Positions 1,037 through 63,319 of a stretch of 64,000 nucleotides of DNA are shown here, piece by piece. How positions within the stretch are numbered: position 1 is the stretch's first letter; every line of letters starts with the position of its first letter. The notes beneath the pieces are model-generated. The model was not told the DNA's origin, searched no databases, and saw only the letters and a list, made by a program, of their open reading frames with translations. The stretch comes from a bacterium (lineage in GTDB: Bacteria > Patescibacteriota > UBA1384 > 2-12-FULL-50-11): positions 1,378-65,377 of the forward strand of contig JAJTYJ010000001.1 of assembly GCA_021463485.1 (NCBI GenBank). Reading direction: 5' to 3'. The translations under genes and the position numbers were made by a program.

Positions 1037-1888
1037 TTACTGAACGCTTGACGGTGGGGTCGATGGCGGCTGGTTATTACCTAATACCATATTCTCATCC
1101 ACTAACGTTGCTGGCGGATCTTGTACGACCACTTCTTCTAATGGTTGGGTAGCTGCGGCTGGCGCTGGTGGCACCTGAGCAGCGATAGGCTGCGCTGGAT
1201 CGTTCATATCGTGAAGCGTCGTCGATGATTCTTGGAGTTTCTTAACGCGTTTTCGCGTATCAGCGACTAGAATCAGAATTAAAACATCGAGCAACAATAG
1301 CGGGAAGAGTAAAATTGGCCACAACGTTCCGCCGCCAGTACTAAACACTCCGCTACCCAACGTTGTTTCTTGTTTAGACGCGCCAGCAGTATCGGTGGTG
1401 TCACCGAGCTGAACACCGGTACCGTTCGTGCTTGGAGCTGTTCCGGTGTTCGTACTACCGCTCCCTGTACCGGTTGAGCCGGGCTGTGTATTACTTGTCG
1501 TACCAGAGCCGGTTGTAGAGCCACTAGTATTACCTGTGGTTGAGTTAGTAGTGTTACTGTTTGTATTTGAGTTGGTAGTTGAGTTGCTCGTGCTATTGCT
1601 GGTTGTATTATTACTCGTGTTACCGGTGTTGCCAGTATTGTTATTGGTAGTTGTGCCGCAGTTTGGATCGGGTGATTCTTCCCCTTCAACTACAACCACG
1701 CACGGCTCAGTTGTGGTTGTGTTACTGTTGTTCGTTGATCCGCTACCAGTGCCTTGTGTTGTTTGCCCCTCACCACCTGGCTCAGTTGCCACCTCAGCTC
1801 GGAAGATCCTCATTGAGGAGAATACAAAAACGATAATCGCAACTGCGACCGCTACGGCAGTGATTGGTAGTATTAATTTATTATTCAG
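1037..1888 (-). CDS. Thr/Asn/Ser/Gly-rich low-complexity membrane-anchored surface protein
   Basis: The ORF-track frame (1813) extends upstream to CTG 1888 after a GAGG tract, adding a signal-like hydrophobic segment; second TM near the C-terminus (LWPILLFPLLLLDVLILILVA). Confidence 0.65.
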   Translation of the reverse strand: MNNKLILPITAVAVAVAIIVFVFSSMRIFRAEVATEPGGEGQTTQGTGSGSTNNSNTTTTEPCVVVVEGEESPDPNCGTTTNNNTGNTGNTSNNTTSNSTSNSTTNSNTNSNTTNSTTGNTSGSTTGSGTTSNTQPGSTGTGSGSTNTGTAPSTNGTGVQLGDTTDTAGASKQETTLGSGVFSTGGGTLWPILLFPLLLLDVLILILVADTRKRVKKLQESSTTLHDMNDPAQPIAAQVPPAPAAATQPLEEVVVQDPPATLVDENMVLGNNQPPSTPPSSVQ

Positions 1889-1956: not shown

Positions 1957-1985
1957 TTGACGCTGTGTAAAGTTTACTTTACATT
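1957..1985 (+). promoter_or_regulatory. sigma70-type promoter (TTGACG-17-TACATT) with overlapping palindromic operator TGTAAAG-TTTA-CTTTACA (1966-1983)
   Basis: Read directly; perfect 7-bp inverted repeat covering the spacer and the -10 box. Confidence 0.8.
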
Positions 1986-1998
1986 ATTCCTAGAAACG

Positions 1999-2697
1999 AT
2001 GACAAAATTTCGGTTATTACTTCGAGAACTGCGGCAAGCGAACGACTTGAGCCAAGAAGAATTGGCTCGAGCACTTCAGGTATCGCGACAGTCGATTATC
2101 TCACTTGAGCGCGGGGAGTATCTACCGAGTATGCCGGTACTGATCTCGCTAATTGAGTTTTTCGACTGTCCGATCGACCAGCTGATCGACGGCGTCTCAC
2201 CGAAAAATAATCAACAATTTGTAAACCAAATCGAGAAAGGGGGTGAAAAGCAGATGCAACTAACGCCATGGAGTCCGTTTCAAGCGATTGATCATATGCA
2301 AGAAGAGATGAATAGTATGATCGAACGAACGTTCGGTCGCGGAGATTGGTCTAACGCTCTACAAGCAACGACCGGTGCGATGAACATTCACGAGAGCGAA
2401 AAAGAGTACGAGATCGAATTCCAGGTTCCGGGTTACACGGAAAAGGAAATTACAATCGAGATGACCGAGAATACCCTAACAGTTTCCGGCGCCAAAGAAG
2501 AGGAGAAAAAAGAGGGTAAAGATGTTGTTCGACGAGAATGGCAACACAGCCAATTCAGACGCTCTATCCGCTTTACCCACCCGATCAAAGAGGATAAAGT
2601 CGAGGCGAAAATGGAGAACGGTACGCTCAAAATCATCGCTCCAAAAATAGAGCCAACAAAACCAAAAGTAAAAAAGATCGAAGTTAAGAAAGGTTAG
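1999..2697 (+). CDS. XRE-family HTH fused to Hsp20/alpha-crystallin small heat-shock protein
   Basis: N-terminal LRELRQANDLSQEELARALQVSRQSIISLERGEYLPS (XRE HTH); C-terminal alpha-crystallin domain (AKMENGTLKIIAPK) with I-x-V tail KKIEVKK; one uninterrupted frame. Confidence 0.9.
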   Translation: MTKFRLLLRELRQANDLSQEELARALQVSRQSIISLERGEYLPSMPVLISLIEFFDCPIDQLIDGVSPKNNQQFVNQIEKGGEKQMQLTPWSPFQAIDHMQEEMNSMIERTFGRGDWSNALQATTGAMNIHESEKEYEIEFQVPGYTEKEITIEMTENTLTVSGAKEEEKKEGKDVVRREWQHSQFRRSIRFTHPIKEDKVEAKMENGTLKIIAPKIEPTKPKVKKIEVKKG

Positions 2698-3035: not shown

Positions 3036-3626
3036 TTATTGGTATCTACCTTCAACTCGCCAGCGCAACGGAATCATGGCACCAGATTTCATAATAGTTC
3101 CTCCGTCAGTATTCTCATACTTACCGTGTGCCCAGCCGTAAATTCCTGTAGTGGAGATGTTATTTGTGTTGGCGTTATTCATTCCACCTAGCACACCCTG
3201 ACCCCAAGCGTAACCGTGATTCTGAACAAAAAGATCAGCAGAATCAGGGTTAATAAGCTCAAATGTCCAACTGGTATGGGCTTGATCACCTTCAAACGCA
3301 ACTGCCCACAAGTAGTCTCTTGCCATTTGGCTACCCGCGCCACAAAGACCGTAATTTCTGTAACAGTCCGGCAGCGCTGGGAGTTTCCAGGTTGAAATGT
3401 ATTTAGGGACAGAGTTCTCCTCGTAAGTTACCTGCCACTCACCCGGTCCAATTGCAAACTTTTTCTTTGTTGTGCCTAGTTCCGTTCCAGGGTTGTTATT
3501 GACGTTGATCGTTAACAACTTCATCGCTTGCCATACGGTGTGAGTTGGTACGGCGGCAGAACCGATTCCAGGCGCGATCAAAAGTAACAATGATAATGCG
3601 ACTAAAATACTCGATTTATTCTTCAT
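3036..3626 (-). CDS. Secreted protein of unknown family, paralog 1
   Basis: Signal peptide; shares IGPGEW, WKLPALPDCY, YGWxHxxY and PLRW motifs with neighbours. Confidence 0.8.
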   Translation of the reverse strand: MKNKSSILVALSLLLLIAPGIGSAAVPTHTVWQAMKLLTINVNNNPGTELGTTKKKFAIGPGEWQVTYEENSVPKYISTWKLPALPDCYRNYGLCGAGSQMARDYLWAVAFEGDQAHTSWTFELINPDSADLFVQNHGYAWGQGVLGGMNNANTNNISTTGIYGWAHGKYENTDGGTIMKSGAMIPLRWRVEGRYQ

Positions 3627-4236
3627 AGCTTACTCCTGTGACATCCCAACGAAGAGGAATCATAACACCCGACCATACGAAACCACCACGATCGCAGTTA
3701 CAGTATCTGGCGTGTGACCAACCGTACGTTCCAGTAGCGATCACATTGTGACTGTTGTCACTATTTTTTCCTCCCAGTACTGCCGAGCCTCGTACGTGGC
3801 TACTAATGTTTGAGAATAAACCGGGATTTAATGGCTCCAGTTCCTGAAATGACCATCTCTGAGGATCGTTTGGATAGTCGGAATAGCTCGTTGCTAGTCC
3901 CCATAAATAGTTATTCACCAGAGCACCGCCTGGCTGGCAGGCAGCGCGACCAGCAGAGGTGTAACAATCTGGTAGCGCCGGAAGTTTCCAAGTTTCCTCG
4001 TAAATTGGGGTGTAGTTGCCACCCGATGCCTGCCGTTCATATTTTACGTACCACTCGGATGGACCAATCACAAACTGACGCTTAGTTGTCTCTAGTTCAC
4101 CGCCGCCGTAGCCGTTCGTGTTAACGACTAGCACTTTTTTTGTTTGCCAGGTGGAACTTATATCCTGAGCGTTGACCGTTGCTACATTGCTCAAAGATAG
4201 GAAGATAGCACCGGCTGCTAACAATAGTTTAATCAT
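3616..4236 (-). CDS. Secreted protein of unknown family, paralog 2
   Basis: Signal peptide; IGPSEW, ETWKLPALPDCY, YGWSHARY, PLRW. Confidence 0.8.
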   Translation of the reverse strand: MIKLLLAAGAIFLSLSNVATVNAQDISSTWQTKKVLVVNTNGYGGGELETTKRQFVIGPSEWYVKYERQASGGNYTPIYEETWKLPALPDCYTSAGRAACQPGGALVNNYLWGLATSYSDYPNDPQRWSFQELEPLNPGLFSNISSHVRGSAVLGGKNSDNSHNVIATGTYGWSHARYCNCDRGGFVWSGVMIPLRWDVTGVSYEE

Positions 4237-4868
4237 AAAATATCACCACTTACCTTCCATTCAGTTGGTAATAGAAAGCCTGCCCATACAAAACCACCAC
4301 GTCCCCCAACATTGTAGCGACCATGAACCCATCCATATGCGCCCATAAGTGACAAATTATGAATGTTTCGACCGTCTTTTCCTGATATTGTTCCTTGTCC
4401 CCAAGCTCGACCGTTATCCCTGATAAATAGCGCGGGATCATCGGGATTCATTAACCCAAACTTCCAAGTTCTCGCCGGACAGCTAGAAACGTTGGTATCA
4501 CAAACTATTCCCCAAATAAATTTTGAAACGTTCGCACCGCCAGGACTACAGCTGGCAGCGTCAGCATAACAATCAGGCATACTAGGCAATGTCCAAGTTT
4601 CTCTGTACTTCTCTACACCACTTTCAGAGTATGATACTGTCCACTCACCTGGGCCAATCGCAAAGTTTCGTTTACTCCTGCCGAGTTCGTTACCGACATT
4701 ACCCTGAGTATCGATAGTTAAAACTTTCGTTGCTCGCCAATCTTCAACGACGTCCGGGGCGGTTTGTGCGCTAATTCGAGAACTATTTTGGTTCGAATAT
4801 ATAAGAAAAACACCAAGCGCAGCTAATATAAATCCGAGAGTATATTGCAGTATAACTTTCCCTCCCAT
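4233..4868 (-). CDS. Secreted/membrane-anchored protein of unknown family, paralog 3
   Basis: N-terminal TM; IGPGEW, ETWTLPSMPDCY, YGWVHGRY, PTEW. Confidence 0.8.
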   Translation of the reverse strand: MGGKVILQYTLGFILAALGVFLIYSNQNSSRISAQTAPDVVEDWRATKVLTIDTQGNVGNELGRSKRNFAIGPGEWTVSYSESGVEKYRETWTLPSMPDCYADAASCSPGGANVSKFIWGIVCDTNVSSCPARTWKFGLMNPDDPALFIRDNGRAWGQGTISGKDGRNIHNLSLMGAYGWVHGRYNVGGRGGFVWAGFLLPTEWKVSGDIL

Positions 4869-5683: not shown

Positions 5684-6337
5684 TTAGTTCGTAACCGTCC
5701 CTGTAACAGTCCACTTAAGAGGCATTAGCGTTCCGGAACCTAGGAAGCGAGCTCTACTATCAAAACCTGGCTCGTACCAGTGTTGGAACGTGTACGCACC
5801 GCTTTGCATAATACATTCATCTTCGTCGCCATTTCTTGGCGAAGAAATACAGCTAACAGTCTTTTGAGTGCCGGTACCGCCGTTTAGACGATTTTTCGTG
5901 CTAGTAAAGTCGTTTGGCGCTCGAACAGCAAACGTATAAAGCATACTATTTGTGCCGCCAAGAGCATTCTGTTGCGTAAAGCAACCCGCCATTATCTCAG
6001 CCGTGTTAACACCGCTTATATCGCAGCCCTTTTCGTCAGTATGAGCAAGCATCTGGATATTGGTAATACTCGGACCCGCCCATGTTTCGGTGAAGGTTTT
6101 CGAGCCAACAGTACCGGTGACAGTCCAGCCCCAAACACCGATCCCCGCTTGACCAACTTGCGAACTACCAACACGAACGTCAGCAGTTAGGACATTATTG
6201 GCCGTCCACGTACTTGTATACGGCGTAGTGCCCTGCGCAGAGGTTTTAACGTCCCCCTTAGACACGTAGAGCATCGCAGCGCCAGCCAGCGCCAAAACAA
6301 AACCAATTCCCATATGTAACAACGTTGTTCGATTCAT
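5684..6337 (-). CDS. Secreted protein of unknown family, divergent paralog 4
   Basis: N-terminal TM; WTANNVLT, ETW, GAYTFQHWY and PLKWTVTG align with paralogs 1-3. Confidence 0.7.
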   Translation of the reverse strand: MNRTTLLHMGIGFVLALAGAAMLYVSKGDVKTSAQGTTPYTSTWTANNVLTADVRVGSSQVGQAGIGVWGWTVTGTVGSKTFTETWAGPSITNIQMLAHTDEKGCDISGVNTAEIMAGCFTQQNALGGTNSMLYTFAVRAPNDFTSTKNRLNGGTGTQKTVSCISSPRNGDEDECIMQSGAYTFQHWYEPGFDSRARFLGSGTLMPLKWTVTGTVTN

Positions 6338-58552: not shown

Positions 58553-59152
58553 CTATCTATCGAGACTTTTAAGCTGTTCGTAAAGTTCGCGCTGCTCGCG
58601 AGTGAGGCGCTTCGGGATTTCGACGTGCAGCACAACAGTTAAATCACCACGACCGCGACGGGTTTGCTGACCCTTACCACGGAAACGAAAGGCCATACCA
58701 TCTTGGGCACCGGCAGGAATTTTTAACTCAATCTCATCACCAAAGTTAGTTTTAAATCGGACTGTATCTCCGAGCACTGCTTGGGGGATAGAGATGGAGA
58801 GCTGGACTTGAACCTGCGAGAACGCAGATTCAAATAAGTCCTCGAAAATTGAGCCAAAGCCGCCGGCCTGTCCGCCGAATCCCGCTCCAGAAAAATCAAA
58901 TCCGCCAAAACCTTGTCCGCCGGCCTGTCCGCCGAATCCGCCATGCGTTCCAGCGTGGCCGAACTGGTCGTACTGCGCTCGTTTCTGCGGATCCCCAAGT
59001 ACTTGATACGCTTCGTTTATTTCTTTAAATTTTTCGGCATCGCCACCTTTGTCTGGGTGTAACTTATGCGCCTTACTTCGGTAGGCTTTTTTAATCTCTG
59101 CTTCAGACGCAGTTTTTGAAACACCAAGAACGTCGTAATAGTCTTTAGACAT
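58553..59152 (-). CDS. dnaJ: Short DnaJ-family co-chaperone
   Basis: [12 protein letters not shown]-domain, G/F region, one C-terminal subdomain; no CxxCxGxG repeats. Confidence 0.85.
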
Positions 59153-59789
59153 AGTTAAGCTTTACTTTTCCATTGTGCACTACCAAGAAACTTGCCAGAC
59201 CTGGTCGTAAGAATATCCCAGAGTTAGCAAATCTAGTCGCCGCGTCAATCTCGGGGAGGTGGCTGTGTCCGCAAATTAACCACTTTTCTGACTTATTACT
59301 TTTATGCCAATTTTTCATCCTCTGGTTGCTGGTTTGGTATACATTTAGATATGGTCTCCCGATAAATCTTATTAGCAACCGTTCTAGTACTGAACCAAAA
59401 TACAAAATCCACTTAGGTAAGTTTGGATGTCGCATATCTAGCGTTGGATCGAGTAGATCGCCATGCGCAACGTAGAATTCTGTACCAGCTTGCGAAAACT
59501 CATAGCTCGTCGCTACTCTCTCGGAAAGAATTGAATAATCCTCTACGCTTTTCGGATCGTGGTTACCGAACAAATATACAGCGTTTTTCTGTTTAAAAAG
59601 CGGAAATAACTCTTTCCATCGAGAATCTAAAAATTCTTGCAGGCTCATGCCAAAACCTTCCCACAAATCCCCGTTAATTATTAGCTGATCTGCGTCCGAG
59701 ACAATATTCTTGATTAATTCAAATTTGGCGGGCTCAAACCGCTTTGTTAAATGTAAATCAGAAATAATTACTATTTTCTCGGTAGACAT
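59145..59789 (-). CDS. Calcineurin-like metallophosphoesterase
   Basis: SDLH, NGD, GNHD, HGD, GHSH. Confidence 0.9.
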
Positions 59790-59813
59790 CCAGCAATATT
59801 TTACCTCAAAAAA

Positions 59814-59829
59814 GTAAAGTTTGCTTTAC
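59814..59829. promoter_or_regulatory. Palindromic operator GTAAAG-TTTG-CTTTAC between divergent promoters
   Basis: Same core as 1966-1983 and 63294-63311; flanked by TAAAAT (minus, 59798-59803) and TGnTACAAT (plus, 59831-59839). Confidence 0.7.
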
Positions 59830-59845
59830 GTGCTACAATGTTTTT

Positions 59846-61329: not shown

Positions 61330-61368
61330 CGGCTCGGTTTGGACTCGTTTCAACCGAGCCGTTTTTTT
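61330..61368. terminator. Terminator between small ORF and dnaK
   Basis: CGGCTCGGTT...AACCGAGCCG-TTTTTTT. Confidence 0.75.
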
Positions 61369-63256
61369 ATTTTGTTTCTTTTGGCTCGTCTGAAGATGGT
61401 TCTTCGGACTTTTTCTCATCACCTGGAGCTGGATCGGCAGACTGTTCGTACATCGCTTGACCAACTTTTTGCATCGCAGATGAGAGTTTCTCTGCTTCGG
61501 CTTTAACTTTTTCGACGTCGTCGCCACCTAAGGCTGCACGTGTCGCGGTGATCGCATCTTCGACTTCGCGCTTATCTTCTGGTTTTACTTTGTCGCCGGC
61601 GTCTTTGAGTGATTTTTCGGCAGTGTGGATAAGAGCTTCGGCCAGATTGCGCTGCTCAACGAGTTCTTTTTTCTTTTTGTCTTCTTCAGCGTGTTTTTCG
61701 GCTTCAGCTTTCATTTTTTCGATTTCGTCGTCAGACAAACCGCTGGAAGACGTGATAGTAATTTTTTGCTCTTTGTTAGTTGCTTTGTCTTTGGCCGAAA
61801 CGTTAAGAATTCCGTTAGCGTCGATATCAAACGTAACTTCGATCTGCGGAACACCGCGCGGCGCAGTTGGGATGCCATCAAGATGAAACTTACCGAGTGT
61901 TCGATTGTCGCTTGCCATCGGTCGCTCGCCTTGTAGAACGTGAATTTCAACTGAGGTTTGATTGTCGGCGGCGGTTGAGAACGTCTCGGTTTTTGAAGCC
62001 GGAATCGTGGTGTTGCGGGCAATCAACGGTGTCATCACGCCACCTAATGTTTCGAGTCCGAGCGTTAGCGGCGTTACATCGAGTAAGAGAATATCTTTCA
62101 CTTCGCCCGACAGAACACCTGCTTGTAGCGCGGCGCCGAGCGCAACCGCTTCGTCTGGGTTGACACCCTTTGACGGCTCTTTTCCGAAAACTTCTTTAAC
62201 CGTTTCTTGAATTAACGGCATTCGGGTCATACCACCAACTAAAATAACTTCGTCGATATCGCTCTTCGAGAGCTTGGCGTCTTTAATCGCTGATTCGCAA
62301 ATGGCAACAGTTTTTTTGATGAGTTCGCCGGTTAGCTGTTCGAGCTTAGCACGGCTGAGTGTTGTAACTAAGTTTTTTGGACCGTCGGCATCGGCTGCGA
62401 TAAACGGCAGATTAATCTCAGCTTCCTGTGTGGTTGAGAGTTCGATCTTGGCTTTTTCAACCGCCTCTTTAATCCGTTGCATCGCCATCGCATCGCCGCG
62501 GAGATCCATACCTTCGGATTTGTTGAATTCTTCAACAACCCAGTCCATAACTTTTAGATCGACATCGTCTCCGCCTAGGTGGGTGTCGCCGTTAGTGGAA
62601 AGTACTTCGAAGCTCGACTCGCCGTCGGTTTCGCCGACTTCGATAATAGTGATATCAAACGTACCGCCACCGAAGTCATAAATCGCGATTTTCTGATCTT
62701 TTTTAGTTTCTTTACCGAGCCCGTACGCAAGTGCGGCAGCGGTTGGCTCGTTGATGATTCGTTTAACTTCTAAACCAGCAATAGTACCGGCGTCTTTAGT
62801 AGCTTGGCGCTGCGAATCGTTAAAATAAGCCGGGACAGTTACAACTGCGCCGTCGACTTTTTCGCCGAGATAACTTTCGGCGTCGGCTTTAATCTTAGCC
62901 AAAATCATCGAGGAAACTTCTTGTGGTGAGTAATCTTTGTCGCCCATTTTTACTTTGACAGCGCTGTCAGATTTAACGATTTTGTACGGCATAAGTTTAA
63001 TGTCACGCTGCACTTCGTCGTCTTCGAACTTGCGTCCAATTAATCTCTTAACTGAATAAATGGTGTTCTCCGGATTCGTAACTGACTGACGCTTTGCCAA
63101 CTGACCAACAAGTCGTTCGCCTTTTTTATTAATGGCCACGATTGATGGCACTAAATTTCCGCCTTCGGCGGTCGGGATCATTTTGGCTTTGCCGCCTTCC
63201 ATAACAGCCGCAGCTGAGTTAGTTGTTCCTAAGTCGATACCAATTATTTTACCCAT
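61367..63256 (-). CDS. dnaK: Chaperone DnaK
   Basis: [41 protein letters not shown]. Confidence 0.99.
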
Positions 63257-63291: not shown

Positions 63292-63319
63292 ATTGTAAAG
63301 TTTCCTTTACATTTGTCAA
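63292..63319 (-). promoter_or_regulatory. dnaK promoter (TTGACA-16-TACAAT) with overlapping palindrome TGTAAAG-N4-CTTTACA (63294-63311)
   Basis: Minus strand reads cTTGACAaatgtaaaggaaacttTACAATt. Confidence 0.85.

Follow-up and report, generated by a model that had tools for sequence, protein, structure and literature searches.

The window, by which we mean the whole 64,000-nt stretch of DNA analysed here, carries at 1999-2697 on the forward strand a gene that joins a DNA-binding domain of the XRE type to a small heat shock protein (sHSP), and the question raised by this locus is what such a protein controls and whether its chaperone half reports stress to its DNA-binding half. According to the original prediction, a single frame of 232 aa contains a complete XRE helix-turn-helix (HTH) and a complete sHSP with an I-x-V tail. 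This description holds, as the translation is free of stops and Pfam finds both domains above the cut-off: HTH_3 at residues 8-62 (window 2020-2184, model 1-55 of 55, E = 4.4e-16) and HSP20 (PF00011) at residues 130-230 (model 2-102 of 102, E = 2e-20). The alpha-crystallin domain and its tail (2386-2688), which are also supported by AlphaFold and by fold matches, lead to I227-E-V229 (2677-2685) in the C-terminal sequence I-E-V-K-K-G, and the N-terminal arm of the sHSP half carries W91-S-P-F94; the W-x-P-F arm and the I-x-I/V tail are sHSP motifs. A longer reading of 277 aa from TTG 1864 was rejected, because it would cross the promoter and the homologs begin at the ATG. Behind the gene, a perfect 13-bp hairpin with A and T runs on either side (2716-2742, z = -3.62) is likely a two-way intrinsic terminator.

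An assembly artefact that conceals a stop codon between the two domains can be ruled out. A protein search returned 131 relatives, nearly all of which have both domains, and contigs of the public runs X7, X9 and X13, from three other studies, span 1999-2688 unbroken, with no indel listed in the gene. The named relatives come mostly from Candidatus Berkelbacteria or Patescibacteria, and some of the genome records were deposited as Saccharibacteria. Across the loci the linker between the domains ranges from 0 to 113 aa, always in frame and free of stops; in L207 (G078) it has been lengthened to 113 aa by a threefold 10-aa repeat with the frame kept. The fusion gene is present twice in two genomes, G139 (C1:2678 and C6:55625) and G052 (C52 and C65).

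The predicted promoter of the fusion gene consists of a -35 hexamer, TTGACG (1957-1962, forward strand), and a -10 hexamer, TACATT (1980-1985, forward strand), which are 17 bp apart, and the homologs have equal geometry. Only 13 nt separate the -10 hexamer from the ATG, so the leader would be very short or absent. A perfect palindrome over the gene's own promoter had been claimed, and it is indeed present at 1966-1983, where TGTAAAG-TTTA-CTTTACA (with arms of 8 bp if the spacer is taken as 2 nt) fills the promoter spacer and overlaps the -10 hexamer as a predicted operator of the form TGTAAAG-N4-CTTTACA. Three matches with up to two mismatches occur in the window against 0.28 expected, and none of 100 shuffles reaches three. 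In addition, 64 of 67 distinct fusion loci have the palindrome (up to two mismatches) no more than 260 nt upstream, 57 of them in perfect form, although part of this conservation must be attributed to promoter constraint, since the right arm coincides with the -10 box. Where a -35-like hexamer is present, the spacer measures 17 bp at 82 of 104 sites and 16-18 bp at 98. Judged by its sequence context, a palindrome that fills the spacer and covers the start of the -10 box is in the place of a repressor on a normal promoter; MerR-like activation was ruled out by the normal length of the spacers. Contigs from RNA libraries cover gene, intergenic and antisense DNA alike and are flat over the flanks, so they are silent on transcription.

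The 722-kb genome to which the window belongs (94% complete) contains six perfect palindrome sites, which precede the fusion gene, dnaK, groES-groEL, clpP, a Clp ATPase gene whose ClpB/C-type assignment comes from the partial sequence of a near-identical relative, and an ABC transporter. At the fusion gene, dnaK, groES-groEL and clpP the palindrome lies between -35 and -10, and at clpB/C it lies upstream. In the window, the perfect copy at 63294-63311 is placed between TTGACA (63314-63319, reverse strand) and TACAAT (63292-63297) ahead of dnaK (61367-63256, reverse strand), a predicted member of the regulon. Another copy, with two mismatches (59813-59830), has a phosphoesterase-dnaJ pair on the reverse strand to one side and a 76-aa hydrophobic ORF on the forward strand to the other; the phosphoesterase-like gene and the short dnaJ-like gene (58553-59789, reverse strand) are probable members. 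The DnaJ-like protein (58553-59152, reverse strand) has 199 aa, falls under the NCBIfam cut-off and apparently lacks the zinc-finger region.

The same targets recur across the class (Berkelbacteria). We examined 53 class sites, of which 40 were chosen from palindrome lists in a way that avoids the fusion's own site and 13 were loci returned by palindrome search; their genes were named by BLAST to ORFs of the own genome, which had been named from sequence and, for dnaK and dnaJ, also by family match. Chaperone or protease genes follow 45 of these sites (dnaK 15, groES 13, clpP 8, clpB/C 5, dnaJ 4), and the remainder precede the fusion gene (4), the phosphoesterase gene (2), an ABC ATPase gene (1) or a contig end (1). 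The operator copies are perfect at four dnaJ and two phosphoesterase genes. As for clpP, its start lies 26-28 nt past the first base of the operator in eight of eight loci, and by its sequence this gene also looks leaderless. The clpB/C operator of the own genome (G000:C31:14767) and of G064 (L242) lies between nusA and clpB/C, with a TTGACA that points back into nusA and a separate promoter-like sequence nearer clpB/C, an arrangement for which a roadblock or an antisense promoter is possible. A perfect operator also stands immediately 5' of a gene pair for an ABC-transporter ATPase and permease in three genomes of the family (G000:C23:69606; L194 and L243), and no -35 was seen at the own-genome site; it may mark a regulon member outside the chaperones or a relic of the ancestral role of the HTH.

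The distribution of the system is opposite to that of HrcA. No HrcA was found in any of the 151 class genomes, the 94% complete own genome included. The exact palindrome is present in 130 of them, against 1 for a reversed control, and the fusion-type HTH in 127. Both features occur together in 124 genomes, neither in 18, the palindrome alone in six and the HTH alone in three, counts which describe a pattern and not independent trials, as the class genomes are kin. The three genomes with only the HTH have sites with one to three mismatches at the fusion gene (3/3) and at dnaK (2/3). Among the six with only the palindrome, the gene is cut by a contig end in two, completeness is 85-86% in three, and it is rated at 100% in one (G121). 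The 18 genomes with neither feature are spread over seven families, with ten in a single family, and in the three that were looked at dnaK directly follows the preceding gene with no site. HrcA, fusion and palindrome were all not found in class genomes of families f5, f6, f8, f9, f15 and f28 (for instance G003, G027, G006, G013 and G032); with the queries used, dnaK was not found in G013 and G032, nor groES in G027 and G032. Such lineages possibly have unregulated or reduced chaperone sets.

Among 191 genomes of other Patescibacteria, by contrast, HrcA was found in 179 and the palindrome in 4, each with a single copy. None of the 150 matches listed, out of 179 in these genomes, spans both domains, and their hsp20 genes are stand-alone and often near CIRCE. 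A regulator common to all Patescibacteria is ruled out for this sample, and the proposed co-occurrence of the fusion architecture with the palindrome and with absence of HrcA thus applies to one class and fails for Patescibacteria at large. A profile search of 1.84 billion representatives revealed many further fusions without taxonomic placement, and fusions outside the class are possible, because ten divergent ones are among those not placed.

Other known regulators were also searched for in the own genome. Neither a CtsR domain (PF05848) nor a MerR-type HTH (PF13411) was found, and one Sigma70_r2 match only points to a single sigma factor, with no alternative sigma factor as in sigma-32 control. 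No CIRCE match with fewer than four mismatches to the consensus was found in a scan which does detect CIRCE near hsp20 genes of other Patescibacteria. As well, the fusion protein itself has no HrcA domain by Pfam, and no domain of RheA or of archaeal Phr is among its Pfam or NCBIfam matches.

The HTH half belongs to a CylR2-like subfamily. CylR2 is its closest solved structure (E = 1.3e-8), and the five-helix HTH_3 fold, the S/T-R-Q recognition helix (SRQSIISLE in the window) and the P-S after helix 3 are CylR2-like traits; a profile match to a stand-alone member of the subfamily has a probability of 99.3. The single-domain form of this subfamily has 65-80 aa, against 232 aa in the fusion, and for 125 of 127 class genomes the frame that holds the best HTH match is no shorter than 130 aa; G112 has a short XRE with a different palindrome, and in G030 the HTH match stops at a contig edge. 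According to the available part of one report, CylR2 is a homodimeric promoter-binding repressor, and CylR2-like HTHs dimerise alone (10.64898/2026.09.04.749385).

The palindrome appears to follow this type of HTH beyond the class. Two stand-alone small XREs from Glutamicibacter (L106 and L107), which have the identical SRQSIISLE helix, and one from Bacillota (L115) were chosen by protein alone, and all carry the palindrome upstream at one or two mismatches. More generally, it was found with 7 of 12 short-tailed XREs (three of the seven chosen by DNA pattern) and with 0 of 44 long-tailed ones. Since near-identical palindromes accompany stand-alone XREs of other phyla that share this helix, the palindrome is predicted to be the family-typical operator of this HTH subfamily. 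The second HTH_3 protein of the own genome was rejected as the binder, having a different helix and no site. These sequences suggest a likely history in which a small XRE with a local role was inserted, together with its promoter, before an hsp20 gene and lost its stop; its site would then have spread to the chaperone promoters while hrcA disappeared. The claim of a heat-shock regulator therefore has strong comparative support, made up of regulon, operator position, a distribution that mirrors HrcA and the match of protein to DNA site, and the fusion is very probably the repressor of a chaperone and protease regulon through the 18-bp palindrome.

In addition to the repressor, the gene is predicted to encode a free sHSP from a nested start. 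An internal Shine-Dalgarno (SD) sequence, AAAGGGGGTGA (2236-2246, forward strand), encodes K-G-G-E of the linker and pairs with the genome's own 16S end, GATCACCTCCTTT, in a duplex of -16.9 kcal/mol, stronger than at any start among 446 long ORFs of the own genome. Seven bases 3' of it stands the in-frame ATG 2254 (codon 86), where a typical sHSP arm begins, and the predicted product of 147 aa (2254-2697, forward strand) would comprise the N-terminal arm with W-x-P-F, the alpha-crystallin domain and the I-x-V tail. The first ATG of the fusion, on the contrary, has no SD (duplex -0.1 kcal/mol) and lies 5-13 nt past the -10 in 41 of 64 loci, so that it looks leaderless or near-leaderless.

The nested start is widely conserved. 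Of 48 long-linker loci, 40 have an SD duplex of -8 kcal/mol or stronger at an ATG that lies 30-48 codons ahead of the alpha-crystallin domain; none of the 19 short-linker loci does. Such a duplex is rare elsewhere, with 7 cases among 204 other in-frame ATGs and 2 among 67 first starts. In the motif G-G-[ED], GGT encodes the second glycine in 15 of 15 cases (background 124/433), and the SD core is seen in three reading frames (20, 16 and 1 cases), which argues that the constraint on the linker acts on bases and not on residues. A control of random synonymous recoding reached p <= 0.05 in only 15 of 43 loci, a modest outcome because the linker residues themselves force purines. The database protein P0096 is exactly the internal-start product of homolog L004, and gene callers sometimes pick the internal start. 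The internal start is probably used, and one gene likely gives little repressor and much free sHSP. The picture of a single fusion protein in the original prediction is thus right about the fusion and incomplete, since most homologs have an internal start for free sHSP. An RNA thermometer over the internal SD found no support, as accessibility in 40 loci equals that of shuffled flanks and hardly shifts from 20 to 50 C (local fold z 0.75), and an internal promoter for the free sHSP was rejected, its pattern being present in 3 of 40 loci only.

As for the sHSP half, the AlphaFold model of the protein (pTM 0.43) consists of two confidently predicted domains connected by a disordered linker; most strands of the alpha-crystallin beta-sandwich have pLDDT > 90, and the top PDB fold matches of this half are all sHSPs. 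Such a layout is easier to reconcile with a tether than with a fixed allosteric contact, a monomer model being weak evidence here. The I-x-I-like tail is retained in 59 of 67 loci, half-domain forms included. Forms without the internal start and the arm occur in several lineages, where the alpha-crystallin domain is still there, diverged and on long branches of the tree. Well-supported branches force at least seven changes of the internal-start state in this tree, which is a quick, unrooted version from 108 columns and does not show a single origin of the fused domain. Because the sHSP domain is kept where free chaperone can no longer be made, it appears to serve the repressor. About half of the domain is left in four genomes (G022, G035, G079 and G008): in three of these regulators the first strands remain, along with one hairpin and the I-x-I tail, the other retains the first four strands and no tail, and the operator is upstream in three of the four. 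A single-sequence fold of a half-domain variant had a pLDDT of 50.6. To some extent, these half-domain forms and the forms that lack the arm argue against client sensing as the sole route. Elsewhere in the own genome (G000:C1:218262-218732) there is another Hsp20 gene, which stands alone and lacks an operator; its product has an acidic N-terminus and falls into a distinct, well-supported clade within the class.

In the mechanism we propose, an HTH dimer, as in CylR2, would occupy the 18-bp site, which lies between -35 and -10, and so block the single sigma-70 polymerase. One transcript would yield a little full-length repressor from the (near-)leaderless first ATG and much free 147-aa sHSP from codon 86. 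Under heat or another folding stress, the alpha-crystallin domain, N-terminal arm and I-x-V tail of the repressor would be drawn into sHSP-client assemblies, by which the operators would be emptied. Free sHSP, once induced, would then compete for clients more successfully than the fused domain does, and DnaK/DnaJ, ClpB/C and ClpP, likewise induced, would dissolve the assemblies, so that the repressor returns and the response is switched off. We give a probability of about 0.6 to this main reading, namely that the fusion is the main heat-shock repressor of the class, which binds the operator, is pulled off the DNA by co-assembly with clients and is accompanied by a nested free sHSP. That the sHSP domain is the stress sensor is plausible, and sensing by co-sequestration with unfolded protein seems somewhat better than an even bet. 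The wider statement, that HrcA was replaced in the whole class by one feedback gene, with a leaderless-start repressor carrying a built-in aggregate sensor and an internal-start free sHSP that buffers and resets this sensor, is one on which we regard the odds as evenly balanced.

Several other explanations, given here in order of falling probability, start mostly from the same repressor and regulon. The sHSP half might be an intrinsic thermometer or allosteric switch, in which a temperature-driven change of oligomer alters DNA binding with no client involved. It is known that sHSP oligomers change state with temperature, and the tail on which we reported above is widely retained, even in half-domain forms. 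Heat usually frees sHSP dimers, however, which would raise and not lower the amount of free repressor; besides, with a single palindrome per promoter, oligomer avidity would add little, and the AlphaFold model contains no fixed packing of the HTH against the alpha-crystallin domain. Even with the precedent of HrcA, which can itself be an intrinsic thermosensor according to the part of PMC8533110 available, we consider a thermometer unlikely. Induction by proteolysis, with the sHSP half or a basic tail delivering the repressor to ClpC/ClpP, as for CtsR, would agree with the membership of clpP and clpB/C in the regulon and with a Clp ATPase gene that directly follows the fusion in 8 of 67 loci, one of them with a McsA-like N-terminus. 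The gene after the fusion in L212 (G020) and L241 (G052) opens with a McsA-like Cys-rich segment and in L212 matches a Clp ATPase, a gene order that recalls the ctsR-mcsA-clpC layout. But adjacency to Clp is a minority arrangement (32 loci have other genes and 27 no called ORF), and ClpP induction would be a positive feedback without obvious shut-off, which makes this route improbable.

To the view that only the HTH matters, the sHSP half being a lost-stop passenger or a solubility tag and stress being sensed through chaperone titration or HTH instability, as for HrcA-GroE and HspR-DnaK, we attach little weight. In appearance, the internal SD and start match exactly what stand-alone hsp20 genes have in other Patescibacteria, from which it follows that the fusion arose by joining two genes; the autonomous dimerisation of CylR2-like HTHs in the portion of the report cited above (10.64898/2026.09.04.749385) and the long branches of domains without an internal start would also suit a passenger. 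Against a passenger, the linkers, whatever their length, are all in frame and stop-free, no operator-bearing split form is among the best HTH matches of the 127 class genomes, and the domain persists where no free chaperone is possible. Finally, it is very improbable that the palindrome is bound by another protein or that the fusion activates instead of represses. The six class genomes with a site and no detected HTH could hint at another binder, and the related regulator GakR acts positively, as stated in the part of the same report that was available (10.64898/2026.09.04.749385); against this, 124 of the 130 genomes that carry the site also have the HTH, helix and site are found together in other phyla too, and normal 17-bp spacers with a site over the -10 do not speak for an activator. 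The reading we prefer is a repressor that is titrated by sHSP-client assemblies.

Compared with known systems, the predicted regulator works like HrcA/CIRCE or HspR/HAIR, and by sequence it is a member of neither, nor of CtsR. In the accessible part of one account, HrcA and HspR are described as autoregulated repressors at inverted repeats in dnaK and groE core promoters, with unfolded protein titrating the chaperones and so relieving repression (PMC6032397). The likeness, known here from sequence, lies in autoregulation and in a predicted operator over the core promoters of dnaK and groE; the differences are the lack of homology, another operator, and a chaperone that, unlike GroE or DnaK there, is not a separate protein but a portion of the repressor chain. 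Unlike that of HrcA, the regulon predicted here covers HrcA-type (dnaK, groE) and CtsR-type (clpP, clpC) targets together. CtsR controls clpP and clpC, is often encoded beside clpC and binds direct repeats; it shares targets with the fusion, which has a palindrome in place of direct repeats, and its family was not found in the own genome.

With CylR2 of Enterococcus faecalis and the stand-alone XREs of 65-80 aa, the fusion shares the HTH structure match and, in relatives, the same palindrome. These are single-domain local regulators beside membrane-protein genes, whereas here the HTH is fused to an sHSP and the site has spread to chaperone and protease promoters. Nested in-frame starts that give two products of one frame are known from clpB, infB and cheA, and what differs here is that the long form is predicted to be a DNA-binding regulator and the short form a complete chaperone. 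A functional analogy may also be drawn with IbpA of E. coli, which, in what was available of two reports, represses its own translation until sequestration into aggregates relieves it (10.1101/2020.04.20.050740) and damps sigma-32 at the level of translation (PMC10410725). Both would be sHSPs whose co-aggregation with denatured protein relieves repression, but IbpA has no DNA-binding domain and works on mRNA translation, via sigma-32, while the control proposed here would be transcriptional and direct.

The architecture had been claimed as not previously described, and no description of the fusion or its operator was found in the literature searched, subscription journals and supplements aside; in the part of PMC11608272 that was available, the main text mentions no hsp20, hrcA or XRE, and the architecture might be listed in a supplementary table of some paper on CPR genomes. 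If the reading is true, an sHSP sensor would for the first time be part of a transcription factor, and a single gene would serve as a portable reporter of protein aggregation. In known repressors the sensor is a separate chaperone (GroE or DnaK), whereas here sensor and repressor would share a chain, and the free chaperone translated alongside would provide the reset. Moreover, the analysis names a candidate master regulator, operator and regulon for a large uncultured lineage and documents what appears to be a clean exchange, at the root of a class, of one heat-shock repressor for another that is unrelated to it. The natural variants (with or without internal start, arm-less, half domain) would form a deletion series for what aggregation sensing by an sHSP needs.

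The fusion gene also has neighbours of another kind. Divergent from it, a gene at 1037-1813 (reverse strand) encodes a low-complexity protein of 258 aa rich in Thr, Asn, Ser and Gly, with one hydrophobic segment and no Pfam match. At 3036-4868 and 5684-6337 (reverse strand), four ORFs of 196-217 aa have N-terminal hydrophobic segments, shared motifs and no Pfam match, and apparently represent a tandem family of secreted proteins.
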